Shown piece by piece: positions 2,333 through 46,114 of a stretch of DNA of 64,000 nucleotides. The notes beneath the pieces were generated by a model, which was given only the letters and a program-made list of their open reading frames with translations, was not told the DNA's origin and ran no database searches. Origin of the DNA: Mytilus edulis (Eukaryota); NCBI RefSeq assembly GCF_963676685.1, contig NC_092344.1:3224001-3288000 (forward strand). Reading direction: 5' to 3'. The position numbers were made by a program, and so were the translations under genes. How positions within the stretch are numbered: position 1 is the first letter of the stretch; the number at the start of each line of letters is the position of its first letter.

Positions 2333-2750
2333 TAAAAAAGAAGATGTGGTATGATTGCCAATGAGACAACTATCCACAAAAGACCAAAATGACACAAACA
2401 TTAACAGTTATAGGTCACCGTACGGCCTTCAATAATGAGCAAAGCCCATACCGCATATATAGTCAGCTATAAAAGGCCCCGATAAGACAATGTAAAACAA
2501 TTCAAGCGAGAAAACTAATGGCCTCATTTATGTAAAAAAATGAACGAAAAACAAATATGTAACACATAAACAAACGACAACCACTGAATTACAGGCTCCT
2601 GACTTGGGACAGGCACATACAAAAATAATGTGGCAGGGTTAAACATGTTAGTGGGATCCCAAGCCTCCCCCTAACCTGGGACCCCTACAACATAAGAACA
2701 AACTATAAAAATCAGTTAAAAAAGGCTTAACTCATCAGATAGACAAAAAA
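2333..2750 (-). repeat. Longest family A copy, including the twister-like motif
   Basis: Near-exact reverse complement of 1-216, extended further 5'. Confidence 0.78.
2592..2678 (-). ncRNA. Candidate twister ribozyme, family A variant
   Basis: Reverse complement CAGG TTA GGGG GAGGC T TGGGATCCCA CT AACATGTT TAA CCCT GCC ACAT..ATGT G CCTG TCCCAAGT CAGG AG CCTG; one T1 mismatch. Confidence 0.6.
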
Positions 2751-5258: not shown

Positions 5259-5641
5259 CAATCTAATTAAAAACCGATCTCTCATCGCTCCTGTTTCTGA
5301 TATGTCGCGTGGGAGATCTAACGAAACCCGCTTTGAGGTCACATGTGAGTGACCTCGTAGGTGTGTCTTTTTCGACCAATGAAATTGAGTCTTCCACGAT
5401 CTTGGAAGTTTAACGTAAGGCAAAGGGATGTAACTCATTTTATTTACGACGAAATCGTCAGTCATAATAATTCATAAACTTTTTTGATTGGCTTATTAAT
5501 AGGTCGTCAACTCATTTGCATATCTTTATAAATTCATGACTTTTAGTTCACTCACATGTGACCTCAAAGCCGGTTTCGTTAGATCTCCCACGCGACATAT
5601 CAGAAACAGGAGCGATGAGAGATCGGTTTTTAATTAGATTG
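5259..5641. mobile_element. MITE, 383 bp, 94-bp TIRs, 9-bp TSD (Mutator-like TSD length)
   Basis: TIRs 5259-5352 and 5548-5641 with 1 mismatch; TSD CCTTTCCTC at 5250-5258 and 5642-5650; removing it restores the RT frame NDHC-PFLDL. Confidence 0.92.
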
Positions 5642-6493
5642 CCTTTCCTCGATCTTGATATCTATATCACTAACGGAAAGCTTAATACTAAAATTTATGA
5701 TAAAAGAGATTTTTCTTTTCCTATAGTTAATTATCCATTTTTAGATGGTGACGTTCCATTGTCACCATCTTACGGTGTTTACATATCTCAACTTGTACGA
5801 TTCGCTCGTGTATGTAACAATGTTTTAGATTTTAACGAGAGAAATTTATGTATTACTGAAAAATTATTACACCAGGGTTTTCGATATCACAAACTAGTCA
5901 AAACATTTACTAAATTTTATCATCGGTATAAGGACATCATTCGTAAATATAGCTCAACATGCAGACTTCTTATACGTTCAGGTATTTCACATCCAATTTT
6001 TTTATGGAAATATTCTTTATAGAGCACAACAATGTCAGTATTCACCTCAGAAACTAACAAAACCTTAAAAGAGACATATCAAGAAGGGATATAGTTACGA
6101 TACTGTTGTCAGGTCACTAAAGATTGCTTATTTTGGCGTTAATATTGATTCACTTATAGGGTCTTTGCATCGAAACTAAACACATTTATTAAAAAAAACA
6201 GTTGTTGGCATGACACGGGTTATGTTCTTCTCATATATGTTATGATGGTATGATACTAAACCCCTAACGGGAAGGATTGTGCCTGATATTCATATGATGA
6301 AATCATAATCTTTCAATCAGTTTAATTGAAGTCTGGAGCTGGCATGTCAGTTAACTGCTAGTAGTCTGTTGTTATTTATGTATTATTGTCATTTTGTTTA
6401 TTTTCTTTGGTTACATCTTCTGACATCAGACTCGGGCTTCTCTTGAATTGAATTTTAAATGTGCGTATTGTTATGCATTTACTTTTCCACATT

Positions 6494-6584
6494 GGCTAGA
6501 GGTATAGGGGGAGGGTTGAGATCTCATAAACATGTTTAACCCCGCCGTATTTTTGCTCCTGTTCCAAGTCAGGAGCCTCTGGCC
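6494..6584 (+). ncRNA. Candidate twister ribozyme, same family as 8750, few substitutions
   Basis: Same layout; L4 TTCCAAGT, P3 weakened; lies ~315 nt downstream of the RT stop codon. Confidence 0.62.
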
Positions 6585-8303
6585 TTTGTTAGTCTTGTAT
6601 TTTTTTAATTTAGTTTCTTGTGTACAATTCGGAAATTAGTATGGCGTTCATTATCATTAAACTAGTATACATTTGTTTAGGGGCCAGCTGAAGGACGCCT
6701 TCGGGTGCGGGAATGTCTCGCTACATTAAAGACCTGTTAGTGACCTTCTGCCGTTGTTTTTTCTATGGTCGGGTTGTTGTCTCTTTGACACATTCCCCAT
6801 TTCCATTCTCAATTTTATCTTCGTATAAGAAAACGCCACGGTTGAACGATACAAAATGTGTTTTGATTTTGTTTTGCATGACTCATCCTTAAACAACATG
6901 CAGACTCATTCAAAACATAATGCAGTGGTTCTTTAGCGTGCAGAGATTAAGCGTTAATTTTTCCATACCAGAGGTATAGAGGATCATCATGTTTTACAGG
7001 TATTACTTAAATGTTTGCACCTGTCCTAGTTAGGAATCTGATGTACAGTAGTTGTCGTTTGTTTATGTAATTCATACGTGTTTCTCGTTTTTTATATAGA
7101 TTAGACCGTTGGCTCCGTGTTGAAGGCCGTACACTAACATATAATGGTTGAAACTGATGGTGGGAAACGTAAGTGTCGGAATATGGTATCATCTAGGAGA
7201 TACATACTCTAACAATGGTATCATCTAGGAGATACATACTCTAACAATGGTATCATCTAGGAGATACATACTCTAACAATGGTAACATCTAGGAGAGACA
7301 TACTCTAACAACAATATGGTATCATCTAGGAGATAAATACTCTAACAATGGTATCATTTAGGAGATACATACTCTAACAACAATATGGTATCATCTAGGA
7401 GATACATACCCTAACAATGGTATCATCTAGGAGATACATACTCTAACAATGGTATCATCTAGGAGATACATAATCTAACAATGGTATCATCTAGGAGATA
7501 CATACTCTAACAATGGTATCATCTAGGAGATACATACTCTAACAATGGTATCATCTAGGAGATACATACTCTAACAACAATATGGTATCATCTAGGAGAT
7601 ACATACCCTAACAATGGTATCATCTAGGAGATACATACTCTAACAATGGTATCATCTAGGAGATACATACTCTAACAATGGTATCATCTAGGAGATACAT
7701 ACTCTAACAATGGTATCATCTAGGAGATACATACTCTAACAATGGTATCATCTAGGAGATACATACTCTAACAATGGTATCATCTAGGAGATACATACTC
7801 TAACAATGGTAACATCTAGGAGAGACATACTCTAACAACAATATGGTATCATCTGGGAGATACATACTCTAACAATGGTATCATCTAGGAGAAACATACT
7901 CTTACAACAATATGGTATCATCTAGGAGATACATACCCTAACAATGGTATCATCTAGGAGATACATACTCTAACAATGGTATCATCTTGGAGATACATAC
8001 TCTAACAATGGTATCATCTTGGAGATACATACTCTAACAACAATATGGTATCATCTAGGAGATACATACTCTAACAATGGTATCATCTAGGAGATACAGA
8101 CTCTAACAATGGTATCATCTAGGAGATACATACTCTAACAACAATATGGTATCATCTAGGAGATACATACTCTAACAATGGTATCATCTAGGAGAGACAT
8201 ACTCTAACAATGGTATCATCTAGGAGATACATACTCTAACAATGGTATCATCTAGGAGATACATACTCTAACAATGGTATCATCTAGGAGATACATACTC
8301 TAA

Positions 8304-9074
8304 AAAACTAACAAAACCTTTAAATAGACTTATTAAAAGGGGATATAGTTACGATACTGTTGTCAGGTCATTAAAGATTGCATATTTTGGCTTTAACATT
8401 GATTCACTGATAGGGTCTTTGCATCGGAACTAAACACATTTATTTCTTAAAAAAACAGTTGTTGGCATGACACGGGTTATGTTCTTCTCATATATTTTAT
8501 GATAGTATGATACTAAACCCCTAACGGGAGGGATTGTACCTGATTTTCATATGATGAAGACATAATCTTTCAATCAGTTTAATTGAGGTCTGGAGCTGGC
8601 ATGTCAGTTAACTGCTAGTAGTCTGTTTTTATTTATGTATTATTGTCATTTTATTTATTTTCTTTTGTTACATCTTTTGACATCAGACTCGGACTTCTCT
8701 TGAACTGAATTTTAATGTGCGTATTGTTATTCTTTTACTTTTCTACATTGGCTAGAGGTATAGGGGGAGGGTTGAGATCTCATAAACATGTTTAACCCCG
8801 CCGCAATTTTGCGCCTGTCCCAAGTCAGGAGCCTCTGGCCTTTGTTAGTCTTGTATGATTTTAAATTTTAGTTTCTTGTGTATAATTCGGAGTTAAGTAT
8901 GACGTCCATTATCACTGTACTATTATGCATATTTTAGGGGCCAGCTGAAGGACACCTACGGGTGTGGGAATTCTCGCTACATTGAAGACCCATTGGTTGC
9001 CTTCGGCTGTTGTTTGCTCTATGGTCGGGTGGTTGTCGCTTTGACATATTCACCATTTCCTTTCTCAATTTTAT
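8304..9074 (+). mobile_element. 3' fragment of the same Penelope-like family inserted inside the satellite
   Basis: Collinear with ~6051-6818 but with scattered substitutions; flanked by (T)CTAA on both sides. Confidence 0.88.
8750..8840 (+). ncRNA. Candidate type-P5 twister ribozyme (best-preserved copy) in retroelement 3' region; predicted cleavage U8793|A8794
   Basis: GGCTAGAGG..CCTCTGGCC (P5), GGGG/CCCC (P2), GAGGG and TAA (L1), GCC, GCAA-TT-TTGC (P3), CCTG-TCCCAAGT-CAGG (P4/L4); same core elements as the rice twister. Confidence 0.72.
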
Positions 9075-11512
9075 CTAACAATGGTATCATCTTGAAGATA
9101 CATACTCTAACAATGGTATCATCTAGGAGATACATACTCTAACAATGGTATCATTTAGGAGATACATACTCTAACAATGGTATCATCTAGGAGATACATA
9201 CTCTAACAATGGTATCATCTAGGAGATACATACTCTAACAATGGTATCATCTAGGAGATACATACTCTAACAATGGTATCATCTAGGAGATACATACTCT
9301 AACAATGGTATCCTCTTGGAGATATATACTCTAACAATGGTATCATCTTGGAGATACATACTCTAACAACAATATGGTATCATCTAGAGATACATACACT
9401 AACAATGGTATCATCTAGGAGATACATACTCTAACAATGGTATCATCTAGGAGATACATACTCTAACAACAATATGGTATCATCTAGGAGATACATACTC
9501 TAACAATGGTATCATCTAAGAGATACATACTCTAACAACAATATGGTATCATCTTGGAGATACATACTCTAACAAAGGTATCATCTTAGAGATACATACT
9601 CTAACAATGGTATCATCTAGGAGATACATACTCTAACAACAATATGGTATCATCTTGGAGATACATACTCTAACAAAGTTATCATCTAGGAGATACATAC
9701 TCTAAAAATGGTATCATCTAGGAGATACATACTCTAACAACAATATGGTATCATTTAGGAGATACATACTCTAACAATGATATCATCTAGGAGATACATA
9801 CTCTAACAATGGTATCATCTAGGAGATACATACTCTAACAATGGTATCATCTAGGAGATACATACTCTAACAATGGTATCATCTAGGAGATACATACTCT
9901 AACAATGGTATCATCTAGGAGATACATACTCTAACAATGGTATCATCTAGGAGATACATACTCTAACAATGGTATTATTTAGGAGATACATACTCTAACA
10001 ATGGTATCATCTAGGAGATACATACTCTAACAATGGTATCATCTAGGAGATACATACTCTAACAATGGTATCATCTAGGAGATACATACTCTAACAATGG
10101 TATCATCTAGGAGATACATACTCTAACAATGGTATCATCTAGGAGATACATACTCTAACAATGGTATCATCTAGGATATACATACTCTAACAATGGTATC
10201 ATCTAGGAGATACATACTCTAACAATGGTATCATCTAGCAGATACATACTCTAACAATGGTATCATCTAGGAGATACATACTCTAACAATAGTATCATCT
10301 AGGAGATACATACTCTAACAACAATATGGTATCATCTAGGAGATACATACTCTAACAACAATATGGTATCATCTAGGAGATACATACTCTAACAACAATA
10401 TGGTATCATCTAGGAGATACATACTCTAACAACAATATGGTATCATCTAGGAGATACATACTCTAACAATGGTATCATCTATGAGATACATACTCTAACA
10501 ACGGTATCATCTAGGAGATACATACTCTAACAATGGTATCATCTAGGAGATACATACTCTAACAATGGTATCATCTAGTAGATACATACTCTAACAATGG
10601 TATCATCTAGGAGATACATACTCTAACAATGGTATCATCTAGGAGATACATACTCTAACAATGGTATCATCTAGGAGATACATACTCTAACAATGGTATC
10701 ATCTAGGAGATACATACTCTAACAATGGTATCATCTAGGATATACATACTCTAACAATGGTATCATCTAGGAGATACATACTCTAACAATGGTATCATCT
10801 AGCAGATACATACTCTAACAATGGTATCATCTAGGAGATACATACTCTAACAATAGTATCATCTAGGAGATACATACTCTAACAACAATATGGTATCATC
10901 TAGGAGATACATACTCTAACAACAATATGGTATCATCTAGGAGATACATACTCTAACAACAATATGGTATCATCTAGGAGATACATACTCTAACAACAAT
11001 ATGGTATCATCTAGGAGATACATACTCTAACAATGGTATCATCTATGAGATACATACTCTAACAACGGTATCATCTAGGAGATACATACTCTAACAATGG
11101 TATCATCTAGGAGATACATACTCTAACAATGGTATCATCTAGTAGATACATACTCTAACAACAGGCGCTGCTAAAATGTAGCTACATCAAATGGGCAGAT
11201 CAAAATTTGGAAAGCTAAATGTATCCCTTTTCGTCGTAAAGTTTAGTTTATAATTGATCCTCAATTTCTTGGGTTAGTCTAGAATGATGCAGAAATATTC
11301 TAAAAATTAATGAGATCAATGTCAGTACTAACACAGTAACCACATTTGAAATAATTAAGAGAGGACATCGTCTACAAAGGGGAACGTGAAGTTGAAGGAT
11401 GAAAAAAAGTGAGAAAAAAAAATTATCAAACTGAGAGAAAAATTCAAAACTAAAAGTCTTTAATCAAATGACAAAATCAAAAGGCTCAAACACATCAAAC
11501 GAATGGATAACA

Positions 11513-11609
11513 ACTCTCATATTCCTGACTTATTACAGACAATTTCGTATGTAGAAAATGGTGGATTAAACCTTGTTTTATAGCTGGCTTAACCTCTCAC
11601 TGTGACAGT
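11513..11609 (-). ncRNA. Degenerate twister-like motif, family B
   Basis: Reverse complement ACTGTCACA GTGA GAGGT..TAA TCC ACC..TCTG TAATAAGT CAGG AATATGAGAGT; L4 mutated. Confidence 0.35.
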
Positions 11610-13520
11610 CGCATACACTACCATCATATTAACAACGATGTGTGAACAAAGCAAACAGACATAAGAGGTTTCAATGGTTACCTTCGTATACGTTTTATCT
11701 CTGCCCAAGCCCAGGAGTCTGCATTCTGGAGTTTCGTTAATTTTAGTTTTATCTGTCCCAAATAACGAGCCTTTATATTGCTGTGGTTACGTCCGTATTA
11801 GTTATACCTTAGTTTGAAACCAGGAGCCTGTATTTCAGTCGTATTCATAAATAGTTGTATACATTCATTACATTTTAAATGATAAATGCTTCAATCAAGT
11901 TGTTAGTTTCATCTTTTGAAGGTGTTTAATCATTCGGCTAGCGTGACTTTTATAGCTGGCCTTATGGTATAAGGTTTGCTCATCATTGTACAACGTGTTT
12001 TGCTCTGTTTTACACTTTCCAGTTCAGAGTGCAGTATCGTTCGATCTGAATAGCAATCAGATAACGTCTCTATATCTCTGTTAGTCATGTATTTTACACA
12101 AATTCATTTGATTATAATTATGAACACTGCTTTGATTTAAGGACAATATAACGTTGCAGTATATATAGCGCATACTCGTAATATTATTATGAAGAGGCGA
12201 TAGAGAACAAAGAGATATTCATTAGAAAACGAACTGAAAATGCGACCGTTACAAAAATACGAAAGATGACAAATAATAGTTTAGAAAAAGTAAAATAACA
12301 AAAATACAGAGAACAGGAAAATTTTTAACGAAACGTCTCTTATAAAACGGCAAAATTAAAACTTCAATACATCAAACGATAATTCCAGAATTGAAGTAGG
12401 CATTTTCTTATGAAAAAGGTGGATGAAATCTGGTTTTATAGCTAGCTAAGCCTCTCATTTTTGTCACATTCGTATAAAATTCCATGATATTGACAACATT
12501 GTTTGAGCAAAACAAATTAACGTAATAGGTAAACATTTCAAATATTGGTTGGGGTTCAGCAGTCAACATTGTTACACTTTAATCGTTTGCTAGTTTCAAA
12601 TACAAGTTGTAAAGACAAATTGTACGGTATGTTTGGTGAACTTTGGTGTATCATTTTGTACTTTTTGAATATTTATTTAAAACCACAAAAAAAATACGAT
12701 GACTGTTCTGCTAAACAGCCACAAAAAAGTTAAGTTACCTTAAAAAAAAATTCTTTGCCATAAAGATACAAAAACAAAGTCTACCTTTCAATCGTTGCAA
12801 AGTTAGATACGTCGATTATACAATTCCATGGACCATCAAGACTTTAGAAAGTATATTTTAAAGATTAACCTTTCCAAAATGTCAGTTGAAAGTATTCTAT
12901 TCAATTCTAATTTCAATGCATTTGAGCGATCGAGCTTTAAAAGACATAAATTCCCTAACATACGCAAATACTTAGTATATATTAGTAGTAGTTCATTGAA
13001 AACTTTGTTAACTAACCTTATCAAAATGCATGTATAAATCAAACCTAATTCCGGTCTGACATGTCTTTTTGATTGCTATAACACAGGAATTTCAAACGTT
13101 AAGTTTATGCGTGTATATTGATGAATTTCTTATAATGCTTGAACATTTACATTTTTCTGATTTACACAATGGAACAAGGAATCTTTTCAAAAACAAACTT
13201 CTGTCAGCTTTACAATTTTTTTGTTGGAACTATTCCATTTTCGCATTAATCATCTCACCATTAGTTTTATGACGCGTTTCTTTACATTGAAGTATAAATT
13301 TAAAAATGAGATGATTATTTAACGTTACCAGTTTCAAATAAAGAAGAAAGAATAGCACAATGAGCTTTTTGTATTGTCATTTGATTAGGGACTTTCCTTT
13401 TTGAATTTTCCTCGGAATTTTGTATTTTCGTGATTTTACTTTTCTATATAAACTGTTCAAAGAAACCCGGCTTATGATTTGGGTATGACAGACGTGCGTT
13501 TCGCCAAGTACAACTTTCTT

Positions 13521-15793: not shown

Positions 15794-16566
15794 TTAATTT
15801 AAATCTTCAGATGAAAGTGATTTCATATGAATACTCATGACAGGTACAGATTTAGGCACAGTACCGATAGGCTGTGATGAAAACTCTTGTCCACGAATTT
15901 TGAATATTTTAAGACATCCTTTTTTGAAATTTCCATTTGTAAAATAATATATCAACCAGTTAATTGATGGATGCAAATGAGCAAAAACTGTGATGGAAAG
16001 ATGCACTTCGTGGGAAAACGTATCTTCAGCATCCGCAACAAGTAACATTGCAAACGGTATCCAACAGATCGAAAATACTGCATACACGATAAATATTGTT
16101 TTTGCTAGTCTAAGTGATTTATTGTCAACGTGTACTGCGGTTTCTGTACTTGTGACCTGTTTTCGTTTACGTCGGACATATAAAAATAGTTTTAAGTAAG
16201 ACATTCCTACAACTATTAATGGAATCCACACAAGACAAACTGAAAATACAACGGTGTAACTGTATGTTGCCATTCTGTCCCAAATACATTCCAAACTTTT
16301 GTCATCAAAACCATGTCCACCAATTCCAGCTGAATTAAGCAGAACCATGATCATGCCAACGAGATACAGTGATATGCACATTATGATACATGTTCGTAGA
16401 GTATATATTTTCTCGTAATGTGAGTTGTGACAGATTAATATGTATCGGTTGAAACTGAGCAATGTGATGGACCCTAGGGACACAATACATGAAACTGTAC
16501 ACACTTTTCCGATTATATCGCACAGTAATGGATACTGCATGAAGAATGGCCGGCCTTCAACTTTAC
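15794..16566 (-). CDS. Melatonin-receptor-like GPCR, paralog B, exon 2 (TM3-TM7, C-tail); spliced protein 347 aa
   Basis: Poly-T tract + AG acceptor (TTTTTTTAG|GTAAAGTT) joins exon 1 in frame (271+773=1044 nt). NRY motif (FNRYILICH, like melatonin receptor NRYCYICH), CWIP in TM6, SINWLIY in TM7. Confidence 0.88.
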
Positions 16567-19289
16567 CTAAAAAAATTAAAAAAAAAATCTGCATTCTATC
16601 ATTTATTAATAATGAACTCAAAAACAATACAATGAAAAAAGAAATATGAAATATGAAATTTTCATTACTGAATATAGTGATATTATATTGTATTGTCTTG
16701 CATTGATTATTGCTCATTGGTCAGACAAAGTTTTGTATTTTGAGGTTTTTAGTTTTTTTTCTATTTTTTATGTGAAATATGTTGGTCAATCTCAATGAAT
16801 TTCATGTTGTTACACACAAAACGTGTGACTGTGTTACTATTGATATTAAACTCTTTCTACCAATTAAAGCATACATTTCAAAACATTGTTATATTTAGGT
16901 AACAATGTAGCCGATATGAAACGAGCAAAGATTTTGTCAAAGAATGTCTAATTCTTTTTCTCAAAATTTTCATCGATAAGTATCAGGAGCAAATATTCAC
17001 CAATAATACCACATGGTCTTGAGTTAAACATTTTAGGTTTTTTTATTTTGATTTGACAGTATTGACTTTATTTGTCTTCGTGATATCATGAAGCTTTTAA
17101 GCGACTTTTGACTTGACGTGTCGAGTTTGTGCATTACTGGTCCAGGTGGGTTCTGATGTGCGATTCGAACACTATGCGTTTTTACAGGGTTGTCTCCATT
17201 TTGTTTACATTTGTATTGTATATCACTTGATTTGTACTATATAGGTAATGTTCTTTCTACTATAAAACTTTTTTTATCGGCCTTTATGTCAAATTATAGA
17301 CAAATCCAACATTTTTTCTGAAAGCGACTTTGTTAAATTTTTTATTCAGTTGTGTTGTGTATCTGTGGTGTATGTTTACACATATTGCGCTGGTGGGTCC
17401 AAACTATTGTCACATAAACCAATTATGTAAATATAACGGAGCTGCAAACAACTTTTATACAACTGTGAGGTTAAGCGAGCAATGAAACAAGGTTAAGGTA
17501 GCAATACAGTTAGGAGTGTGGGTTCTCAATTGAGCCCATGAAATTTGAAAGTTTAATAATGCAATAAAAAAAGAACTTTTTTAGACAGCTGCGTATGAAT
17601 TTAGCCTTCAAAGATAGTTTATAAGAACATCAAGGTTATTTTTCACATATTAAATGGGCTATTTTCTTTTTGACGTATCCAATTATAAGCCTGGGTATGT
17701 AACTGCGTGTCTGTCAGATATCTAAATGCCTGATAAAATTAATGATCGTCATATCAGAAATAAAATGATGACCTCATTTTTTGGCATTTAATTTTGATAT
17801 AAGCAGAATTTTGATATAAGCAGATATTAATGATTTTTACAATTCCTATACATGCTGCTCTAATGTCGATATAAACCGCTTGAATTATATGAAAAATGAG
17901 AAAATGTAAGTTTGAAGCTTTAAAAAGTTACCAACTGACATTGCAGCCGATTATTATTTTATCTCCTTCATATATAAAGTATATAATTCTTTGGTTCTAT
18001 TTATCATAAATGAAGTAATTTTTATCTTGCCATGTTTTCAATCATGGGCAAATCGGTAATAAAGTATCTTTGAATACAGATTTTTAAGAATCTCATTCCT
18101 CAAGTATTAATATAAATATAAGCAGTCAACTAATAATGAATCGAAAACAGCCTTAAGGTAGTATATTTATATATAATAGCTGTGCTTTCTGTTGGTTGGT
18201 TATTCTTAACACTTAAAAGTTATTTAGAATACATTTCAACATGCTGCTTTTTCTTTCTGGTAGCGTCTTCCTTCTGCATACAAAATAAAACAAATAGTTG
18301 GTAAATGTTCTTTCTGACGGTAATTTACGATAGCCGGACAGCGCGTTTTAACAGTCATTTAGGCGCTAAAAATTAAAAAAAAAGTGTATGCGTTAGACCT
18401 TTTTATGCAATCTTGTAAGATTAAGTTTAATCAGCGAAAAGTTCCTGTTACCTGTCAAAATGTAAAAGTATATGATTTGTAATTCATTGATATATTCTCA
18501 AAAATTGGTGCAGAGACATTGGCAACCATGTCTCCTGTTGATAAACAGTATTATAATGGGCTACCAAAACTGCATGACAATTTACATACGAACACGACAA
18601 TAATTTATGTCATAAGAAAGCCAAGATTATTAAACTTGTATAAAACTTGACAATGATCTTTTGGATCAGACTTTATACTTTCATTTATTATTTTGTGATT
18701 CAGGTTAAATAAACCAGAACATATATTTTACCAATTCATATTAAGCGATGCCATTATAAGTTGATTGTTTTGATTTCCTGTGTAATGACTAATTCATGAC
18801 CAAAGAGAATGTGGTATATAACGTTGGTTTTGTGTTTCGTTCTTTACTACAGCAGTTAATTATTATTGATGATGAACCGATGAATGCAATTACAGATAGT
18901 GAATGTTAATTAAGATTCTATGTAGAATATAGTAGTAACTGTGGAAAATTTGAGGCAGAAAATGTTGTACCGCTTACTTTAAAAAAAAAACCACGTAAAC
19001 ACTCAAAGTACAACCCTGGTATATGTATGATGTCTTAAATGGATAACAGTTTGATTATATAATCATCCTTTCTATAAATTATAGTTCATCATTAGGATAT
19101 TTTAACCCATTAGGACACAGTTACAGAGGAAAATTGTATAAACTGCTGATATAATGTAATCTCTGACTTCAATTATTGTGACATACATCATGAATTTGAA
19201 ATGACAAATGTTTGATATTCATAAAATGCATAAGGAGTCAAAATTTTGAGGCTTTTTTTTTTAACCTGTATTACCTAATTTTATATTAA

Positions 19290-19444: not shown

Positions 19445-21424
19445 TTAAGCAAATTAAAGTTGAAATAAAAATTTGAACTCGTACAAGTCATTCGCAGAGT
19501 ATAATATGATTAGGAACTTTATACCAAGGTTGATAAACGTCCGAAGCTGTAAATGATTTCAATGCATAATTTGAGCTGTTTTGTGTTGCAAAACAAAACC
19601 CTGATTAAAATGACAAAGTATCTAAACGTTGAAATTCAGAAATTCGTCCACAACATGAAGATCCCTTATTTAACCGGGATTGTCTGTAAACAGATTATCT
19701 TTACTAAAGATAGGAATATATAGTAACTACATGCGTAAATCTTGGAGAAAGACGTCTTTAAGCTATACATCATACTGATCTAATTCCATCAAACGAAATA
19801 TTGATTCATAAAGTTAACGACTTTTAGACAAATAAAGTGCTCTTAACTGGATCATAACATGTGAGATTTAAGAAATGAATCACTCTTACAATCAGTCTTA
19901 GTATAAACATTAAAACAAGGAGTAGCACCAACTTCCTGGATGACAAAGTTCAGTTATAATGATTTATTCCTTACATGAATAGCAAAGGTTTATACTTGTA
20001 AAGGAGCGACAAAAGACACCAAAGTGATGATCGAACTCATATATTGAAAACTTACTGAAAATGATTGAAATGTTGTAACGTTCAAAACATCGTTGCTTAA
20101 AATAAAGAATAATGTTCGCTCAAAGACATTTTCAATATCAAAAAGATTTTATGAATGTTTAAACGGGTTTTTAAAAAATAATCTTAGAAATAAAAATTGT
20201 ATTTTGTGATAATGTTGTCGTTTATGTGCCGTCGTTGTTACTTAGCCAAATTTGTTTCAATATTTCATTGTATATTACTTTGACACAGTTTCATAACAAG
20301 ATGTTCTCGTTTTTAAAGAGGGTCAAATCATACTAAGCATAAATAACTTTATGTACCAAGGCAGTTGTTTTCAAATAGTCCGTTTCTATTTATACTGGCG
20401 TTTGTTTTTGTTCCACTTCAGTGTTCCTGTTGTACTCTTGTTTTCCTCTTATAGTTGATGTGTTTCCCTCGGTTTTAGTTTGTTTCTCTAAATCGATTTA
20501 TAACTTAAAAACACAGGTAAACTACGGTTGCCCATATTTGATTTAAAACAAATATATTGCCTGAAACTGACATAATAACAAATGCTTCATATCTTTATAA
20601 AGAAACTTTTCTTCAGTTAAAAAAAGTTCTGTTTTAATATAGGCAATCATATGAATACCAACTAAATCTTGCCAACATGTTCATTTGTTTATATGAGTCA
20701 TGACAAAATATCCTTCAACAAAAATACGGTAACATCACGTTATAAATTTCATGTGTCCGATTTACTTTTCTGGATTTACCGTCAGCGTGTATGCTCAAGG
20801 CCTAATATTGGAAAGCCATTGATGTATAAGAACCGAACAGTTGAAGAGCTATATAATTTTATATAACCAAAGGATTAAATGAGAAAAGTTGAAGGTAATC
20901 TTCAAAAAGTTTACGAACGCCTTAATTCTTTGGTGGTCATATTTGTTATAAATACGTTCATATTCCATTTGAAGTAGCCATTGTGCCTTTCCTGTGAAGC
21001 CAATGAATGGTATTTGTCACTGAGCTTTAAATGTGTAAGTTATATTGAGTCTGTCCAAGTAATGAAGTATTATTCACAGAAAGATGATTTATTATAGTCT
21101 ATGGCAATTTGCCTCGCAACGTTCTCAAATCTAAGAGATATTTAGAGTTTGACACAGGAGAATTTTTAATGACCTTGTATTGACGTTTGTTTTTTATTAA
21201 TGTTTTATAAGTGTTCCTTCCACATCTCCAATTAAAAAGTAAAGTGGTTTCTTGGAGCCTTTCATTGCCAATCAAGGATCACATCTTCAGAAAATTTTAT
21301 TATACTTTTACTTTAAACGAAAACGTTATTTAAAAAGGCTTATACGTTCTCATATATGTTGATAAGTTAATGATATGTGTTTAAATTGTCTGTTTGTTTT
21401 GTCATTATAATCGAATTTGATACG

Positions 21425-21525
21425 ACTGTCATACAAGTCAGATGTTTAGCTAGCTATAAAACAAGGTTCAATCCACCATTTTTCCACATAAGAACATGCC
21501 TGTACCAAGTCAGGAATATGATAGT
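21425..21525 (+). ncRNA. Candidate twister ribozyme, family B (degenerate L1)
   Basis: ACTGTCATA/TATGATAGT P5; TAGCTAGCTA palindrome; CAA TCC ACC; CCTG-TACCAAGT-CAGG. Confidence 0.5.
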
Positions 21526-23099
21526 TGTTATCCATTCGTTTGATGTGTTAAGCTTTTGAAGTTGCCATTTGATTAGGGTCTTTCCGTTTTATATTTTCCT
21601 CGGAGTACAGTATTTTTGTGATTTTACTTTTTATTTAATATTATGAAAATTAAGCACGATCCGTTAGGGTTTTAGTATCATATCATAATAAATTATTTGA
21701 GAAGGACATAACCCGTCTTTATTCAATAACATGAGAGAGCAACCATTTAACATTAAGGGGGAGGGGTGTATGGTTTTTTATTTGAGTTAAAATTTTCTTT
21801 TCGCGCTGAGTGAACAATTTTATTTGGTTTTTCAACGCTATAAATCAAATCATTCTGTGCAAAATTTAACATAAATGGAATGTGGTTTGAGAGTACTCTC
21901 AAATCGTACTTTACCCTGTTGATACTATTTGTCATGCTTTTTTGTTATTTAATGTAAACTTGTATCTGGTCTCTATGCAAGCTTTGATTGTTTGTTATTA
22001 CGTTACATTTTCACTTCTTCGTACTATGAATATCACAATTATTTCCTTTTTCCTATTATACTGCATATATATAACACTTCCGGCACCTGTACAAAGAACT
22101 AGAAGTTTTATCGAGCACCGATTTTATATTTTTTATTGTTGATATTCACCCCACATGTACCAAGTTTTATAATAGTTGATGTGGTTCATAAGTTTCTCGT
22201 TTTTTATATAGATTATCAGACCGTTGGTTTTCCCGTTTAAATGGTTTTACACTAGTAATATTTGGGGCCCTTTATAACTTGCTGTTTGGTGTGAGCCAAG
22301 GCTCCGTGTTGAAAACCGTACCTTGACCTATAATTGTTTACTTTTATATATTGTGACTTGGATGGAGAGTTCTCTCATTGGCACTCATACAACATCTTCC
22401 TATATCTACATTTTTTAATCAGAAAACCTTTTGAGGAAACAAAATACCACCCCCCCCCCCCCCCCCCCCGCTTTTTTTTCTCATGAAGTTAAAAAATCGT
22501 TTACTAAGTAAATAGTAAAGTAAACATTTTTTTAAACATTACTTATTTCGAGTTACATAATAAGTAATTCAGGAAATAAAATCTATAAACTTCTTATATT
22601 GCATTCTGTTTTGTATAATATTAATCAAATATAATATCTATATCAGGTTCATTTATTCCAATTATCTATAGCAATGAACACATATCTTATATGACCATCT
22701 TTCTTTACTGCAGAAGTGCAATGCAGCTTTATTGATGATAGCCATGGAGTATGAAAATGATTGCAAATAATTGATAATTTTCCACTGTATTGATGTATTG
22801 CTTGGTAACTAAGTATTATCAGATAATTATGTGGTACATTTTCTTCTAGAAACACCAGTAGACGTACTTTGTAGATGTGATAGAATCAGAAAAACGTTTG
22901 ATTTTGTCTCCTTTTCTATACAATCACAAAAGAACAATTAAAAAAACAAGTTACTGATGTAAAATTTGATATCAAAATCAAATAACTGTAAACTCAAAGT
23001 CAATGAATCAACTTTTGAATGAGACTCTTTAGGCTTGCAGTAAATATCTTTGTATTGGTCCAGGCTTGATATTACTTCTTTACCAAAATCAGTAAATAT

Positions 23100-23182: not shown

Positions 23183-23587
23183 AAGTGTCATTGTAGTTAA
23201 TGGAATACACATTAATTCCAGTCGAATAAATTGAAGTTGGAGATTATTTTGATGATATTATATTTAATTTTCTTATCGTTGTATCGCATCTTTTTACTTT
23301 CGTTTGAGTAATTATTATCTCCTCCAAATTAGAATAGAAAAGAAGAAGAAACGCAATTTAACAATTTATTTCTTTTTTCTAGAAGTATGAAATAGTATTC
23401 TTTATTCACAACACTATGGGTCCAAATAGATTATGGTTTTGTTTTGCTTATACAAAAACAGTGAAATTTTAAATTTGTTAAAAAAAATTAGAAATTATAA
23501 CAAAGTATAATTTAAGACGCAACTTCCAAACAAAAATTCTCACAGATTCAACCCATCGAACAAATCATGTTTCATGACCCTTCTCAA

Positions 23588-23675
23588 ATGAGAGGTTTAG
23601 CTAGCTATAAATCCAGGTTTAATCTACCATTTTCTACATAATAAAATGCCTGTATCAAGTCAGTAATATGACAGT
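23588..23675 (+). ncRNA. Candidate twister, family B, lacking the 5' P5 strand
   Basis: GAGGT, TAGCTAGCTA, TAA TCT ACC, P3 hairpin, CCTG-TATCAAGT-CAGT, TATGACAGT. Confidence 0.42.
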
Positions 23676-24429
23676 TGTTATTCATTCGATTGATGTGCTT
23701 GAGCTTTTGATTTTGCTATTTGATTATGTACTTTCCGTTTTAAGTTTCCCTCGGAGTTCAGTAAATATAATGATTTTACTTTCTTCTAGTAGACAAATTT
23801 GTAATTCAAAACATCAATCGTGTAGTCCTTCTTTTTATTAGTCAATGTAAACGACTAAGGGAAAGTATACAAGATAAATTTTATAATGATTTTGAAAATA
23901 ATTTCTTATGTTTTGAATTATGGCATGTGTGGAGTTTCTGGCATACTGGGAGTTTCTATAATAGTTTCAATGATTTACTGGGTTTTTTTTCATTCTCATA
24001 TCGTACGATATGGCAAAAGCATTGTGAGTTAAAAAAATGACATTTTTTTTGTATTAAACAAACAAGATTAAAACAATAAAACACAAAGAACTTTTTATCT
24101 GCAAATGTAGAGTGCGCATCTGATGCAAAAAAAATGGTACCATTAATGTTATCTCCAGAAGAGATAAAAACCTATACTACATAGCAAGCTATAAAGGCTC
24201 CGATGAATGTTAAATAGTTCAAACGCGAAAAGTAACTGTATAGTTTAGGAGTAAAACAATAAACGAAAAACAACTGATATACAGCAAACAAACCACAACT
24301 ACTTAATACGAGCGTCTGAATTTGAAATGTCAAGACATGTGAATTCATCCGGAAAACACTGTCATTCGAAGTTAAACACCATACATATATCTGGCAAGTG
24401 TTTATTATCAATATTAAAGAATTACTTAC

Positions 24430-24700
24430 CAACAATACTCATGGGATCCGCTATCATCGTAACATACAAATCTGATATTGCCAGGTTAACCATGAAAACA
24501 GATTGCACTTGTCTGAGTTCTTTTGTTTTCGACACAACTATCAAAATAAGGAAATTTCCAAAGGTTCCAACAAGTGATGCAATTACTAACAATAAAATAC
24601 TGATAATGGCAAATCCTGGAGAATCCTGAATAAATTCAAATCGTCTGAAATACAGCCAGTCGTTACTAGTACCATTCTTTGTACAATAGCTATCATTCAT
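24430..24700 (-). CDS. Melatonin-receptor-like class A GPCR, paralog B, exon 1
   Basis: ATG 24700, GN in TM1, NLAxxD in TM2, G|GTAAGT donor; 271 nt, phase 1. Confidence 0.88.
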
Positions 24701-27116
24701 TGTTACATATATTCCTGTCCCAGCAATCTGTGTTTGTCTCGGGAAGAGTTTTCTATGCCAATCAGTTGTTCATCATACTTTCATGCTTCCATTAGATTTA
24801 TAAATAATTAATGAAGTTAAGAACCTATTGACGACATAAGACTTCCTAATTATTATCATTGTAGGTTATATCAATATTGACAGTCGTTTGTAAATCACGG
24901 TTTTCTTATAACATACAAAAATATGGTAATATCAATAAGTGGCATCAACACATATTGTCAGCAATATCATCATTTAAATGTTCTTTCAATCGATCCTATT
25001 TTTTCTTACATCCAACAGCAGAATTGTTCTAGAAAATTATGATGATTTAGATATTCAGTAAAAGATCAAAAACTCATCTGATATCTAAATATTTTGAATG
25101 TTTGCAGTTAACCAGTTTGTCAAGCCATATAACTACCTTTATAAGCAAACATGAAACTGGCCCTTTCAAGTTCATTATTCAAATGATAAACTTTTGTTCT
25201 TTTCTGTAAGTTTTGGTTCTGCAGTGTTTTCCAAATTGAACTGACTGATATTTCTGTCATTAACTTAAATAAACATTTCCTATAAATAGCGTTTCCATTG
25301 TTCATGTTTTTACACTTTTCATTGCATTATGTTTATTTTTTTATTACCTTAAAAGTATTATTTAGCTCCTGCTAAATATTTATGATGGTAAATGTTCTCT
25401 GGTAAACACATAAACTGCAGATTAAATATGCGTGCGTCTAAATGTTCTCTTTCTTCGTCCCATGACTTCACATGAGATACACAGAAAACAATAAGGAGAC
25501 ATTAAATGATTGGCAATGACACAACTATCCACCAGAGTCCAAATAGCGTGAAAGTAAGCAACTACATTCTGAGTATACTGGTATATTCAGGGCACAAGAG
25601 ATAATTTTTTCATTTTTGTTTTGGCGAAATCAATGTTTTCCATTATTTTATGAAACAGATATCCCGAGAGGATGCGTCAATATAAATAGAAATCCCTAGC
25701 TTACCCGCAGGCCAAAACCAGATTTTTGTCGTCATCGTATTAATACAAACGTCAAATAATAAGATGCCGAGAACACAATCAGAAATAATTGATCGAAAAT
25801 GAATAAAGTCTTAAAATAAATCTGATAAAAGAACAAATTATTCGTCGGCTAATAGACATGAAAGAAAACAAAAAAATATTCAGTAAACCATTTCACATAA
25901 CCCTAGGGAGTTAGTAACACTGACACTTTTAACACTCGAGGGGGAACCTTATAAGTTTCTTTCTGGTAAGAAGTACCTAAGGAGTTAGTAACACTGGCAC
26001 TTCGAATAACCCATATTTCAGCCAATACCTACATCTCATATATCCCAGTGAACTTGAAATTAAGGATACTACTGATACTAGAAGGACTGCTTCATACCTT
26101 GATCTTTTCCTCAATATTGACGTAGATGGACGACTTCACAAAAAATCTATGATAAACGGGACAATTTCAACTTCCCAATTATCAATTTCCCATTTCTCAG
26201 CAGTAACATACCCTCTGCCCCTTCGTATGGTGTTTACATATCACAATTGATACGTTATTCTCGTGTTTGTTCACACTATACGGACTTCATATACAGGAGT
26301 GTGTTCCTTACGCAGAAACTGCTCCAACAGAGTAATGAGGAGGACAGATTAAAATTGACACTCCGTAAATTTTATGGACACCATCACGAATTGGTGGATC
26401 CATACGATGTGTCTTTCACCAAAATAGCTAAGGACATTTTTACCACATGGTAGATTGTTGTTTGTCATTATCATGATTATGTCGTCTAATCTTTTAATTA
26501 CCAAACGTGACTTATTCCCGATTGTGACTGTTTTGCTGAGTGTGAATTCGCATTACTATAAGACGTGTTACGGTACTTGTCTATCCCAAATTCATGTATT
26601 TAGTTTAAATGTTTAATGTTATATTTGTAATTCTCATCGGATTTTGTCAAATGTGTTAACGTCTTTTCTATTATATTATGTGTTATGGTAAAGAAAATTA
26701 ATCACCGCATTCATTTATTAGATTTCATTTTGTTCAACGTAATCAGTACGATATTTTACGTTTGAAGTTAGATTCTAAACAAACCGGACATAGCTTTATA
26801 ATATAGTTAATTGCTACCTCAGTTTGCTATAAATAAATATTAAAATGTGCATTGTTACTAAATGCAATATCAGTATTTAGTTCAAATATAATCTTAAATC
26901 AACCATAATTCTATCTTATTCATTGAAATGACGTCATTTTTCATTTTTTGACGATTTGTTTTACAAATTCAAATGACGTAATTTTTTTGTCATTTTTTAC
27001 AATTTCAAATATGACGTCACTTGGCGATAAGGTTTAAATTTATTCGGATGTGTCTACATTTTGTGTTGCAAATGTCTGGTTATGTAATGTATTTCAGTTG
27101 TTTCCTGTAATTAGTT

Positions 27117-27318: not shown

Positions 27319-27700
27319 TTAGTTAATATTTCAGTTTTATCATGTACAGCTTTTGTTTAGTAATTTTATAAATTTACTGTTTGCAAAAGTATAAATTATT
27401 CTAAATTCTAGGGATGTTCTGGTAACTAACAGAAAACCCTGGCCGTTTTTGGCACAACTTTTTTAATCTTTTGGTCCTCGATGCTGTTCGACTTTGTGCT
27501 TGTTTCGGCTTTCAAACTTTTGTATCTTGGCGTCACTAGTAGATCTTGTGTGGATAAAATGCACTTCTGGCGTATTAAAATTTTCAACTTGTTGCCTTTT
27601 GTTGGCTGTTGTTCGTGTGTTTCTTTGTCAATTGTGTTCTCCAATTTATTTATATTGTAGTCCTGTGATGTTGAGTTGTCATTTTACTGTTATATTTCAC

Positions 27701-27800
27701 ATGGCTATAAAAGAGGGAGGTTTGACATGCCACAAAACCAGGTTCAACCCACCATTTTATCCGTTAAAAATGTCCTATACCAAGTCAGGAATATGGCCAT
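27701..27800 (+). ncRNA. Candidate twister, family C, inside the RT-bearing insertion
   Basis: ATGGCTATA/TATGGCCAT P5; GAGGT with L4 TACCAAGT; CAA CCC ACC; one P4 mismatch. Confidence 0.55.
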
Positions 27801-29114
27801 TGTTATATTATAGTTCGTTTCTGTGTGTGTTACATTTTAACGTTGCGTCGTTTGTTTTCTCTTATTATTTAGTGTAAATTCACATTGCGATAAGACGTGT
27901 CACGGTACTTGTCTATACCAAATTCATGTATTTGGTTTTGATGTTATATTTGTTTTTCTCGTGGGATTTTGTCTGATGCTTGGTCCGTATCTGTGTGTGT
28001 TACATTTTAGTGTTGTGCCGTTGTTCTCCTCTTATATTTTATGCGTTTCCCTCAGTTTTAGTTTGTTACCCCGATTTTGTTTTTTGTCCATGGATTTATG
28101 AGTTTGAACAGCGGTATACTACTGTTCCCTTTATCTAATACTCGGAGGGGGTCTTATAAGTTCCTTTCGGGTAAGAAGTACCTAAGGAGTTAGTAACACT
28201 GGCACGTCTAACACTCGATGGGGATCTTATAAGTTCCTTTCGGGTAAGAAGTACCTAAGGAGTTAGTAACACTGGCACTTCTAACACTCGAGGGGGATCT
28301 TTTAAGTTCCTTTCGGGTAAGCAGTACCTGTTTCACAAGTTACACTAGTCTTGTTGCTCATCTATTATAAATATGACTTAAAATAGAAAAATCACTAACA
28401 CACACTTAACGCGGATGCATACACGAAAGTATGCAAACCTAGAATTCTAAAATAACTTTTAACTAGTTAACATTTTTACATATCTTTTGAATGTTTTGGA
28501 ATTCATAGAATTTGTTTATAACTGAAGGCAAAACTGGACCGTTTTATCCGTCTTAATCATTCAGATGTATATTATTGTCCTTTACACATTGGTTTTCATT
28601 ATAGAAATTAAAGCTTGATATATGAGGAAAAAAGTTTTGATAAAGTTTACATTTAAGAAATTAACAAGTCATGAAATTTCTACATTTATCAAACAAGTCA
28701 TTATTCAGCTAACTCCTTGTTTTAGTCAAATCTTTGTATAATCAATGGTCAAATCTAATTCTCCGGAAGGGAAAACATAGTTTACATATCGTAATGCCCT
28801 GTGAATTTAAAAGTGATGTGTATGGTTATTTCATATCTAAGTATCAAGGTTTCTATAAATCTGTGTCACTTATTTTTTATCGTTTTGATAAGAAGGTGCA
28901 GGAGGAATTCAAAAATGAATGAGAAAGAATAAATAACCTTGCATGAACCAGGATTAAAATGAATATTCTACAACACAAATAATTATAAATATTCTACATG
29001 TCTAAATGTACTATTGGATTATTTATTTATGTATTTCTCTGTTTTGAGTGTTCTTGCATTTATTTGTACTGTATTCCCTTCATGTAATGTTATCATTTTA
29101 GCGGTATCTTTAAT

Positions 29115-29211
29115 ATTGTCATAACGCACGAGGTCTGGCTAGCTACAAAACCAGGTTCAACCCATCATTTTTTTCTTAAAATGTCCTGTACCAAGTCAGG
29201 AATATGGCAGT
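29115..29211 (+). ncRNA. Candidate twister, family C/B-like
   Basis: ATTGTCATA/TATGGCAGT P5; GAGGT; TGGCTAGCTA; AACCAGGTT CAA CCC; CCTG-TACCAAGT-CAGG. Confidence 0.52.
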
Positions 29212-29705
29212 TGTTATTTATTGTTCATTTTTATGTATGTTGCATTATCGTTTGTTTTTGTTGCACTTCAGTGTTCTGTTATTTCGTTGTTTTCCTCTTA
29301 TATTTGATGTTTTCCCTCGGTTTTAGAATGTAACCCGGATTTGTTTTCTCTCAATCGATTTTTGACTTTTGAACAGCGGTATACTACTGTTGTCTTTATC
29401 TACAACACAAAATACAAGAAACAATTTTGTACAAACGGAAAATAGAAATGTTTGCACATTAAAAAAAAAAGATTCTAAGCATGCCATGCAAATCCACAGA
29501 TATTAACAATGTCACAATCATGTAAATAATAAAATCGAGAAATGCACAAAACATTTCAAAACTTTGATTTTTTTTAAATACTAAGGCTTCTCTATCCCAG
29601 GAATTGATTACCTAAGTTATATTTGGCAAAACATTGAGGAATTTTTGGTCCTCATGCCCTTCAACTTCGTACTTTTTTTGGCCTTTTTAACATTATTTGA
29701 TTCGA

Positions 29706-29749
29706 GCGTCACTGATGAGTCTTTTGTAGACGAAACGCGCGTCTGGCGT
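29706..29749 (+). ncRNA. Minimal type I hammerhead ribozyme with intact core; predicted cleavage after C29743
   Basis: GCGTCA-CTGATGA-GTCT(TTTGT)AGAC-GAAA-CGCGCG-TC-TGGCGT: stem I, stem II, short palindromic stem III, GUC site. Confidence 0.9.
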
Positions 29750-30070
29750 AAATATAAAATTTCATTCCTGGTATCTATGATGAGTTTTATTTACAACCAC
29801 TGGGTCGATGCCACTGTTTGTGGAGATTTATTTCCCCAACGGTATCACCAGCCCAGTAGTCATCACTACTGTGTTGACTTGAGTTATCATTGATATGTTC
29901 ATAATTATAAATTAACTGTTAACAAAACTTTGAATTGTTTAAATACTAAGGCTTCTCTACCTCAGGAATAGGTTACCTTAGCTGTATTTGGCAAAACTTT
30001 TAGGAATTTTTGGTCCTCATGCTCTTCAACTTCATACTTTATTTGGCCTTTTAAACATTGTTTGGTTCGA

Positions 30071-30112
30071 GCGTCACTGATGTCTTTTGTAGACGAAACG
30101 CGCGTCTGACAT
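30071..30112 (+). ncRNA. Second tandem hammerhead copy with a 2-nt core deletion (probably inactive)
   Basis: GCGTCA-CTGATG--TCT..AGAC-GAAA-CGCGCG-TC-TGACAT, 365 bp downstream of the first copy. Confidence 0.7.
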
Positions 30113-31934
30113 AAATATAAAATTTCATTCCTTGTATCTATGATGAGTTTATCTACTCCTAATGACACTGTTGAAGAAGTTTAGAGACAAGCATATATTC
30201 GTATCGGTCGACCAATTGGTGATAGAGATCATAACACTTAAATAGTGTCGTTTTCGGGTATGCTCCTGCTGGGAATGGGAAGTTGATGATTAGAAAGTTA
30301 GACTAGATTATAGTGGTCAATATGTGTCAATATCGATAAATAGATCAAGATGTGAAGAAGACTTTCTAGTGGATGCAATATCTTGAATCCTAATTTTAAT
30401 ATATGGGATGAAATGTGGGCTATTTAGTGACAGGATATCATCAATATGTATCTGAGAGCGAATGTTAAAAACTTGGAAAGATGCTTTATCGTTTGTCTTT
30501 GAGAAGGTTCTGAATTAAATTTGTTTCGAACAAGTACTTAAAAACAAGTCGACGATAGAGGTACACAATAAGGTAATAAATATTATGAATAAAGATTTTC
30601 GAGAAGATCTGTAGAATTTTGTTTTTGACTACATGTGAATGACACCACTGCTTGAATATATTTCGATATTTCTAAAGGCTATCTTATTTTTACCTTAAAG
30701 TGACCTATTTAATTGCATTTACCTCCGTTATTTAAATTAAGGTAACACGATACCGAATGGCATATAGTTAAGGTATCCAGGATATAAACGCAAGATTGTC
30801 ATCGTCCTTTGTTTTTATATCACCTAAGGAAAATGCCAGATTTGCTGTGAAGTCCAATTTCTATTGTAAAACATTCAAAATAAAAAGATTCGTGCATATC
30901 AAATCAATGCTGTTACAGGCTTTGTCTTCTAGAACAACAACATATTTTCCTAAGGGAAATAGTAAAGCATTAATACCTCGGACTTCTTGAATGGGTTTTA
31001 AGAAAGTACTCATGGTACATCATAGTTTTCTAGCTTGCCTCGGAATGCATGGCCATGCTGCCAGCGAATATGCCATACGGTGACAAACAATTGATTGTAT
31101 CTTTGTCATTTAAACTATGTATGGTAACTGTCCCATTCCCAACTATATCACGTCTCCTTCTTTTCGTTGTCATGTATCTGATTTAGGTTCGTCTGGATTA
31201 CGCTTAAACGATTTTCTGTCCTATTCCTCAACTGTATATTCACCAGTAACCATGCGCTTTTTTTTTCAATTAATAAGATTGAGAATTTTCTAACAACTCT
31301 CTATGCTGTTCATTGTTTCTATAAAATGTCAAGGTCTTCGATTATAATATTACCAGCGGGGTTGTACATTTACGGGAAGGGTGAACAACAAAAATCTGGA
31401 GGTTGTTATTCTACATTGTCTCTTATATCCTCTTGTGGATGAAAATCTTAGATGCAATTGGTTTGGTGAAATGACATGTGTAGTTTAATCTTTAAAGTTA
31501 TCAGGTATTGATAGCATCCGAACTTTAATTTGCGTGTTCTACTTTAAAAAAAAAAATATGAGTATGAGTTATGACTATTGAACAATGGTATACTACTGTT
31601 GCCTTATTATCATCTTTCAAAGTAGTTGTCATTCGTTTGATAGAGACCTAGTAGCTGGCAATGTCAACAACTATTGTCACCAGCTTGTACTTGTTTTAAT
31701 GACGGAAGTGTGTCTGACCTGTTAAAAAAGTGAAATTTATTTTGATACCGGTTTATGAAACAGTTCAGGATCAGTATGGGGAATTTCCAAAGGCTTTTAA
31801 ACAGTATATACAAATATTCCATAGACAATGTGTAAATTGGTAGTCGTTAATAGTTTTGATGACAGGTACTCCTACTTTGACATGTTGACTGTCCCTTTGG
31901 TATCTTTCGTCCCTCTTTGACACCTATAACACTA

Positions 31935-39318: not shown

Positions 39319-39657
<339 letters not shown>

Positions 39658-39677
39658 TAAATGAAGAACTGAGATTA

Positions 39678-45728: not shown

Positions 45729-46073
<345 letters not shown>

Positions 46074-46114
46074 TAGGTCAATTAAAGCTATTGTAGTTAC
46101 AACACAACTGTAAT

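Follow-up and report, generated by a model that had tools for sequence, protein, structure and literature searches.

The twister fold at positions 8750-8840 of the window (by which we mean the whole 64,000-nt stretch of Mytilus edulis DNA that was analysed) carries, in place of its P1 helix, two palindromes that are very probably, judging from covariation, used to pair two copies of the RNA. The fold is of type P5, is predicted to cleave itself, and belongs to a Naiad Penelope-like retroelement (PLE), where it lies in the 3' repeat. More tentatively, we propose that pairing at the P1 position may switch on self-cleavage in tandem transcripts, with lone copies left mostly uncut.

The type-P5 twister core and its copies in the window

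A search of Rfam with 201 bases aligned Twister-P5 to 8763-8829 at 23.4 bits (E 0.0042; cut-off 37.6). At the gathering score the whole window gives no twister match, and Rfam has no hammerhead match at 8700-8900. The elements of the fold, all on the plus strand, are the following.

8750-8759, plus strand: P5 5' strand, a 10-bp partner of 8831-8840 (sequence and minimum free energy (MFE) fold; covaries between families)
8763-8766, plus strand: P2 3' strand, partner 8796-8799
8767-8771, plus strand: L1 strand GAGGG, with the predicted catalytic G at 8767 and the T1 pseudoknot strand at 8769-8771 (Rfam alignment, T1 covariation)
8773-8782, plus strand: palindrome 1, TGAGATCTCA, zero-loop, 10 nt, in the place of the P1 3' strand
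8784-8793, plus strand: palindrome 2, AAACATGTTT, zero-loop, 10 nt, in the place of the P1 5' strand; its last base precedes the predicted cut
8793-8794, plus strand: U^A of the predicted cut, placed from the alignment with Rfam Twister-P5
8796-8801, plus strand: P2 5' strand (8796-8799) and T2 pseudoknot dinucleotide (8800-8801)
8803-8812, plus strand: P3 hairpin (MFE fold)
8814-8829, plus strand: P4 stem and L4 loop, with the partners of T1 and T2
8831-8840, plus strand: P5 3' strand (MFE fold)

The segment 8772-8793 consists of a T, palindrome 1, another T and palindrome 2, and the AA of the predicted cut site comes directly after it.

T1 is paired to 97.6% among 14 family representatives, and at two of its three positions both bases have changed together (C-G to A-U and C-G to U-A; the forms are CCC/GGG, ACC/GGT and CCT/AGG); the third pair is U.U in four clam-type motifs. 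T2 is paired in all 14, as GC/GT, AC/GT or CC/GG. P4 is 92.9% paired and has two double-changed pairs, while P2 is fully paired in seven representatives, contains one mismatch or bulge in four, and two mismatches in three, which are single copies. The sequences of P5 and P3 vary among families, and their pairing is kept. None of 500 shuffles reached the covariation score of the 14 representatives, a control that is inflated by the kinship of the sequences. The patterns used to search the genome demanded the conserved L1 and L4 bases, the constancy of which is hence circular as a test of conservation; the predicted catalytic G and A are also kept in five published Naiad consensuses that were picked by the L4 word alone.

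The fold shares with type-P5 twisters (RF02684, clan CL00120) the order of elements, the GAGGG/UAA/L4 loop, P2, P4, both pseudoknots, and the ending in P5. It differs from them in the T1 and T2 variants, in the score below the cut-off, and in having two zero-loop palindromes instead of a P1 hairpin; for want of that hairpin we file it as a variant that would work like twister, and not as a canonical member.

The U at 8772, which follows GAGGK, is invariant in 14 of 14 representatives, as are the two U residues before the cut base, and all of these are without a partner in cis. A U.A-U triple with adenines of the partner RNA is one candidate role for them. Schistosoma twisters likewise have UU at the position before the cut (parts of PMC8501958).

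The twister fold can be parsed in eight copies in the window; the one at 11510-11614 is absent from the original prediction. The other copies and the elements that hold them are:

8306-9074, plus strand: 5'-truncated Naiad copy, family F1, holding the motif 8750-8840; inserted in a 32-bp satellite, end 280 nt past the cut site (L029)
8489-8553, plus strand: SECIS-like hairpin in the 3' UTR of the same F1 copy, 31.1 bits, below the cut-off of 35
5640-6818, plus strand: second F1 Naiad copy, with RT C-terminus, SECIS-like hairpin 6232-6296 and twister fold 6493-6587, predicted cut 6537^6538 (L028)
2584-2685, minus strand: twister fold, family F1b, palindromes TGGGATCCCA and AACATGTT
11510-11614, minus strand: twister fold, family F2, decayed
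21423-21528, plus strand: twister fold, family F2, with L1 and palindrome 2 decayed
23574-23678, plus strand: twister fold, family F2, with L4 and palindrome 2 decayed
27699-27803, plus strand: twister fold, family F3, about 1.25 kb downstream of a PLE RT C-terminus (26005-26453)
29112-29214, plus strand: twister fold, F3b type

The satellite array spans 7183-11161 and is broken by the Naiad fragment at 8306-9074. Host open reading frames at 15794-16720, 24422-24769, 39319-39660, 45729-46076 and 61830-62315 look like exons of GPCR, NAMPT and BTG/Tob genes. At 29582-30150 two units of about 360 nt lie in tandem and contain minimal type I hammerheads (29706-29749 and 30071-30112); they are probably the mussel retrozyme (parts of PMC7229834). 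The stretch around 29800-29860 of this retrozyme resembles, by eye, the 5'-end motif of several published Naiad consensuses, a likeness that hints that Naiads may mobilise such retrozymes.

Two palindromes at the place of P1

The original prediction held that the strands expected to form P1 do not pair with each other, and this is so throughout: in none of 185 parsed copies does a canonical P1 reach four of five pairs, G.U pairs being allowed and copies below the parse score being dropped uncounted. In the same copies palindrome 1 is at least 6 nt long in 147 and palindrome 2 at least 8 nt long in 155 (G.U again allowed). When seven families were defined from the downstream sequence alone, the commonest junction was palindromic in each of them. 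A palindrome of at least 8 nt occupies the P1 position in 12 of 14 family representatives, as compared with 2.7% of 820 flanking 13-mers; these representatives were picked with the palindromes known, and the parse of 185 copies is the non-circular check. Since the window contains 113 palindromes of 10 nt or longer, the case is built on position and covariation and not on any single palindrome. As a control, 69 phage stretches supplied 26 different P5 twisters, of which 24 have a P1 stem and two have a zero-loop 8-nt palindrome.

The five palindromes named in advance are all present, at 6517, 8773, 2652-2661 (minus strand), 21447, 23598, 27723 and 29136; the positions assigned to them were those of motif starts, about 10-60 nt off. 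The "near-perfect" palindromes placed at 27701 and 29115 exist, but they belong to decayed copies, the commonest forms of the family being TGGCATGCCA and TGGCTAGCCA. Likewise, a second palindrome does abut the cleavage site at 8784-8793, but it is decayed in the copies at 21423 and 23574.

The centres of the palindromes covary. Both central pairs of palindrome 1 follow Watson-Crick rules in every one of 28 cells (14 representatives), and seven central tetramers are seen: GATC, GCGC, CTAG, CATG, GTAC, TATA and TGCA. A hand count of the first 100 of 2,258 matches to family F4, made with a pattern that left the two central bases free, gave AT in 51, TA in 45, GC in one and a non-palindromic centre in three. 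Family F2 has lost two central bases and kept the symmetry, and published Naiad consensuses add the forms TGATGCATCA, TGGAGCGCTCCA and GGTGCGCACC. Palindrome 2 keeps AAC..GTT in most families, with both arms changed in Bpla, and its centre may be even, odd or a U.G wobble. Within a hairpin, an even palindrome has to leave its central bases unpaired, so selection on them would imply a second strand; and the forms TGGGATCCCG and AAACTGGTTT, which are compatible with G.U pairs, suggest that the pairing takes place at the level of RNA.

Predicted energies agree with pairing between copies of the same family. A single junction folds at 0 to -1.5 kcal/mol and a homodimer at -9.3 to -20.3 kcal/mol; the homodimer mean is -15.8 kcal/mol versus a cross-family mean of -5.5, and the strongest cross pair, at -17.1, joins two families with the same core. 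Palindromes that differ among families would act as family codes. Taken together with the covariation, this makes it very likely that two RNA copies pair at the palindromes. The palindromes could instead form two small hairpins in cis, or reflect a mutational symmetry at the DNA level; in either case RNAs would not pair with each other. Hairpins of three pairs, at -0.4 to -1.1 kcal/mol, are indeed predicted in four of 14 junctions; however, hairpin loop positions would not be expected to covary as these centres do, the G.U-compatible forms point to RNA, and such palindromes are rare in phage P5 twisters, where P1 is a hairpin. We therefore consider this explanation very improbable, and retain pairing between RNA copies.

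The Naiad host element and its templates

The host of family F1 is, by its protein sequence, a Naiad PLE. A near-complete F1 element (L033), with twisters 3,968 nt apart, has an N-terminal GIY-YIG domain, a KR-rich block, CxC and DKA, all of which are diagnostic Naiad features (parts of PMC8557442). The GIY-YIG domain (L033:2228-2788, compared with PMC8557442 and with the Naiad_Scon protein) is N-terminal to the RT and includes CX2-5CxxC and CCHH cysteines; Pfam gave no match for any of the four proteins tested. F1 also fits Naiads in its 5' truncation, in partial tandems forming pLTRs, and in unit length (3.4-4.4 kb in Naiads). All tested protein and insertion features are thus the same as in the Naiads of Craig et al. 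2021 (PMC8557442). The difference is that this paper reports Naiads without canonical hammerheads and no twister (the word does not occur in the main text), and selenoprotein Naiads in clams and spiders only.

Family F1 itself is a predicted selenoprotein Naiad, with four in-frame TGA codons at cysteine positions (L033:2408, 2501, 2534 and 3810), which are kept in 8 of 8, 10 of 10, 11 of 11 and 30 of 30 covering loci, respectively (the 30 loci being L296-L325). Two of these codons coincide with U positions of Naiad_Scon, and a SECIS-like hairpin about 70 nt past the stop scores 32.3 bits (E 0.0011; cut-off 35).

In families F1b-d, F3 and F4 only RT ends were seen upstream of the motif. The F4 RT is 77-78% identical to that of F1 in three of 25 loci, and an F3 RT was seen at two places. 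Family F2 matches the 3' end of Naiad_Mgal. Among the 3' ends of 14 of the 54 published Naiad consensuses, the twister with two palindromes is present in Mgal, Bpla, Mphi, Scon and Mmer; eight of the 14 end in a different motif (motif 2, see below), and the Mcor consensus has neither motif in its last 600 nt.

Three mutually exclusive patterns found 12,528, 9,308 and 2,284 matches in the 1.37-Gb genome, about 24,000 in all with a few places counted twice; the reversed patterns found none in each case. Clam-type P4 has three matches only in the M. edulis genome. A metagenome scan matched at least 118 stretches, about 70 of which looked like chance and were set aside by eye. Among the matches listed, 35 can be parsed into one further family that has two subfamilies (L124 and others), to which L192, L171 and L230 are to be added; on this sequence evidence the fold is carried also by contigs of another animal. 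Eight metagenome matches (L158, L164, L170, L181, L184, L189, L223 and L228) belong to a different repeat, with a twister-like L4 word, two odd-centred inverted repeats, and no P2 beside GAGGG.

The insertions tell what kind of RNA served as template. In the best RT matches the fold is present in 30 of 30 loci, about 330 nt past the usual stop position, and the site is spanned. Leaving out the reference copy, 54 of 56 F1 insertions end 276-287 nt beyond the cut site, and reads end there too; 44 of 81 upstream repeats extend beyond the site, 16 of them to the edge of the fetched stretch. It follows from these two counts that the templates hold an intact site, which fits circular or uncut tandem RNA. 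A fast constitutive cutter would destroy the insertion template, which argues that this twister is not one; what holds cutting back is not told by the templates. Insertion ends exactly at the cut are found in one of 81 cases, and five lie within -14..+7. A hint that ends gather at the cut site was dropped when a second sample gave a flat two of about 29 (counted by hand, identical flanks taken once).

Reads of RNA gave a similar picture: four runs from two studies (6-18% of each) have no pile-up of ends, no drop over the site, and coverage of both strands. This is a weak test, since the libraries were standard ones and lone copies are read through.

One way to account for uncut templates is that pairing switches cleavage off: palindrome 2 would fix the pre-cut base in a helix and guard the template, and lone transcripts would be cut. 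Palindrome 2 does take in the pre-cut base in F1a, F1c, F1d, F2b, F4 and M1. In F3, in many F2 copies and in Bp, however, this base is an unpaired C, and transcripts of host genes display no dip over lone copies, a weak argument in view of the libraries; we regard this as improbable. A little less probable still is that the fold has lost the ability to cut and serves the element's protein as a structured handle that dimerises. The lack of cut ends in reads and insertions agrees with such a handle, as do the low Rfam score and the U.U pair in clam-type T1. Retention of the catalytic G and A in the published consensuses speaks against it, however, and so does the hammerhead of an Anolis PLE, which cuts in vitro and yet gives no ends in RNA-seq (parts of PMC11167929). 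For the same PLE, insertion in vitro is reported to proceed without hammerhead cleavage, a point against the gated cleavage that we propose.

Pairing, cleavage and a parallel motif

According to our preferred, tentative reading, pairing activates cleavage. A tandem transcript would supply the partner through its second repeat, at a distance of 4 kb, and palindrome 1 would become the central duplex of a strand-swapped double twister, as a substitute for P1. The unit freed by double cutting would already hold both of its ends within a single core, so that they could be joined into a circle. Palindrome 2 would lock the dimer, most easily once cutting has freed it: on geometric grounds, two duplexes lying next to each other between closed loops could form only if the strands were linked, and it is therefore more likely that palindrome 2 pairs after the cut or with a third strand. 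When four motifs were cofolded, symmetric dimers resulted, centred on palindrome 1 and with P5 exchanged between the strands; they lie 7.6-15.8 kcal/mol lower than two monomers (pseudoknots were not modelled, and F1a keeps an off-register P2). The swapped layout is that of the double hammerhead, which PLE hammerheads reportedly use (parts of PMC6765202).

Gating of cleavage by pairing goes one inferential step beyond the host element, the twister core with its covarying pseudoknots, the loss of P1 and the covariation of the palindrome centres. The original prediction of a dimerisation device is supported as far as pairing between copies is concerned, by centre covariation and homodimer energies, but not in its suggestion that cleavage is tuned to dimers. 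Its premise that P1 can be largely removed from twister agrees with published data, and this weakens the suggestion: natural type-P1 twisters are "essentially impervious" to P1 defects (parts of PMC11662667), and a P1-less twister is described as cleaving at a near wild-type rate (parts of PMC5408937), although inefficiently in another report (parts of PMC8501958). With P1 published as dispensable, nothing forces the monomer to be silent. Autoinhibition through the junction was not seen either, as the native junction blocked the T1 strand no more than 150 shuffles did in 14 of 14 motifs. In F1a the MFE structure buries the cut site in another helix; this arrangement was rejected as not general, and the program does not handle pseudoknots. 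Published tolerance of P1 loss, the negative autoinhibition test and the lack of cut ends are the reasons why we place pairing-activated cleavage well below pairing itself. The best indirect argument for gating comes from the Naiad host, which the original prediction had not identified.

The strongest alternative, which we nonetheless think rather unlikely, is that a single twister cuts by itself, or is restrained by a protein, and that the palindromes are a separate signal for RNA dimerisation, similar to that of retroviruses. Such a signal would pair two element RNAs, or the two ends of one unit, for RNP assembly, circularisation or template jumping, and after the cut the palindromes would form a free 3' tail in which both duplexes fit. 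The dispensability of P1 and the negative autoinhibition test are compatible with it; moreover, a PLE protein has been predicted to be a dimer, and other Naiads flank an unrelated core with two palindromes. On the other side, the palindromes lie exactly on both P1 strands, palindrome 2 reaches the scissile bond in every family, and templates that span the site are hard to reconcile with an ungated twister.

The unrelated core is that of motif 2, found in oyster, ark-shell, pearl-oyster and hemichordate Naiads shortly downstream of the RT end, and matched 527 times in the M. edulis genome (control 0; L103-L122, 1501-1548 in each). Read in order, it starts with a stem strand, followed by a 10-nt palindrome, by GCAG, five bases and GCUYAC, and by a second palindrome of 5-8 nt, before the partner strand completes the stem. 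The palindromes covary like those of the twister motif, and motif 2 has no match in Rfam. GCAG and GCUYAC, compared by eye, are similar to the L1 strands of twister-sister, GCAAG/GCUC^AU (parts of PMC5660989); in contrast to twister-sister, motif 2 is without P1, P2, the junction and the SL4 loop set, and only 5 nt separate the loop strands. We propose it as a candidate for an unannotated three-way-junction RNA with a putative new ribozyme architecture.

A close parallel is with the minimal type I hammerheads of PLEs, which have palindromic stem III loops and are active as dimers (parts of PMC6765202), as the original prediction stated. Location in pLTRs, a palindrome in place of an unstable helix, and the tandem context are the same in both cases, whereas the core is unrelated, there are two palindromes here and not one, and the helix that they replace is, according to published work, dispensable in twister. 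The twisters of Schistosoma Perere-3 (parts of PMC8501958) are similar in that a weak-P1 twister is found in an animal non-LTR retroelement; they are, however, of type P1, at the 5' end, with a target duplication adjoining the cut, whereas here type P5 occurs in the 3' repeat of a PLE and insertion ends do not mark the cut. No paper that links twister to Naiad or PLE repeats came up in a full-text literature search; the supplements of twister surveys may include some of the sequences. This variant is not described in the parts consulted of PMC10085705, PMC7229834, PMC11620745 or a 2026 preprint, and neither mollusc nor Penelope occurs as a term in the supplement of PMC8501958. Bivalves are among the new hosts of type-P1 twister candidates (parts of PMC11662667).

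A broader reading, which remains doubtful, would be that Naiad ribozymes work only as pairs, and do so in two lineages, one with twister and one with an unrelated twister-sister-like core. In each, the basal helix would have been replaced by two zero-loop palindromes as a family-specific key; tandem precursors would be cut to unit-length, possibly circular, templates, and tens of thousands of lone copies in host transcripts would be silent. If true, Naiads would provide the first dimer-gated twister from nature, and motif 2 would be a new ribozyme architecture. A twister whose pairing key can be programmed would, in addition, offer a ready-to-use RNA switch. Natural GTAC/GATC pairs, which differ only in the two central bases, make dimer dependence testable. 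Naiads, which are dominant in many invertebrate genomes, were said to lack the ribozyme of other PLEs; the twister described here would fill this gap, and PLEs with three different RNA cores would be seen to converge on palindromic pairing.
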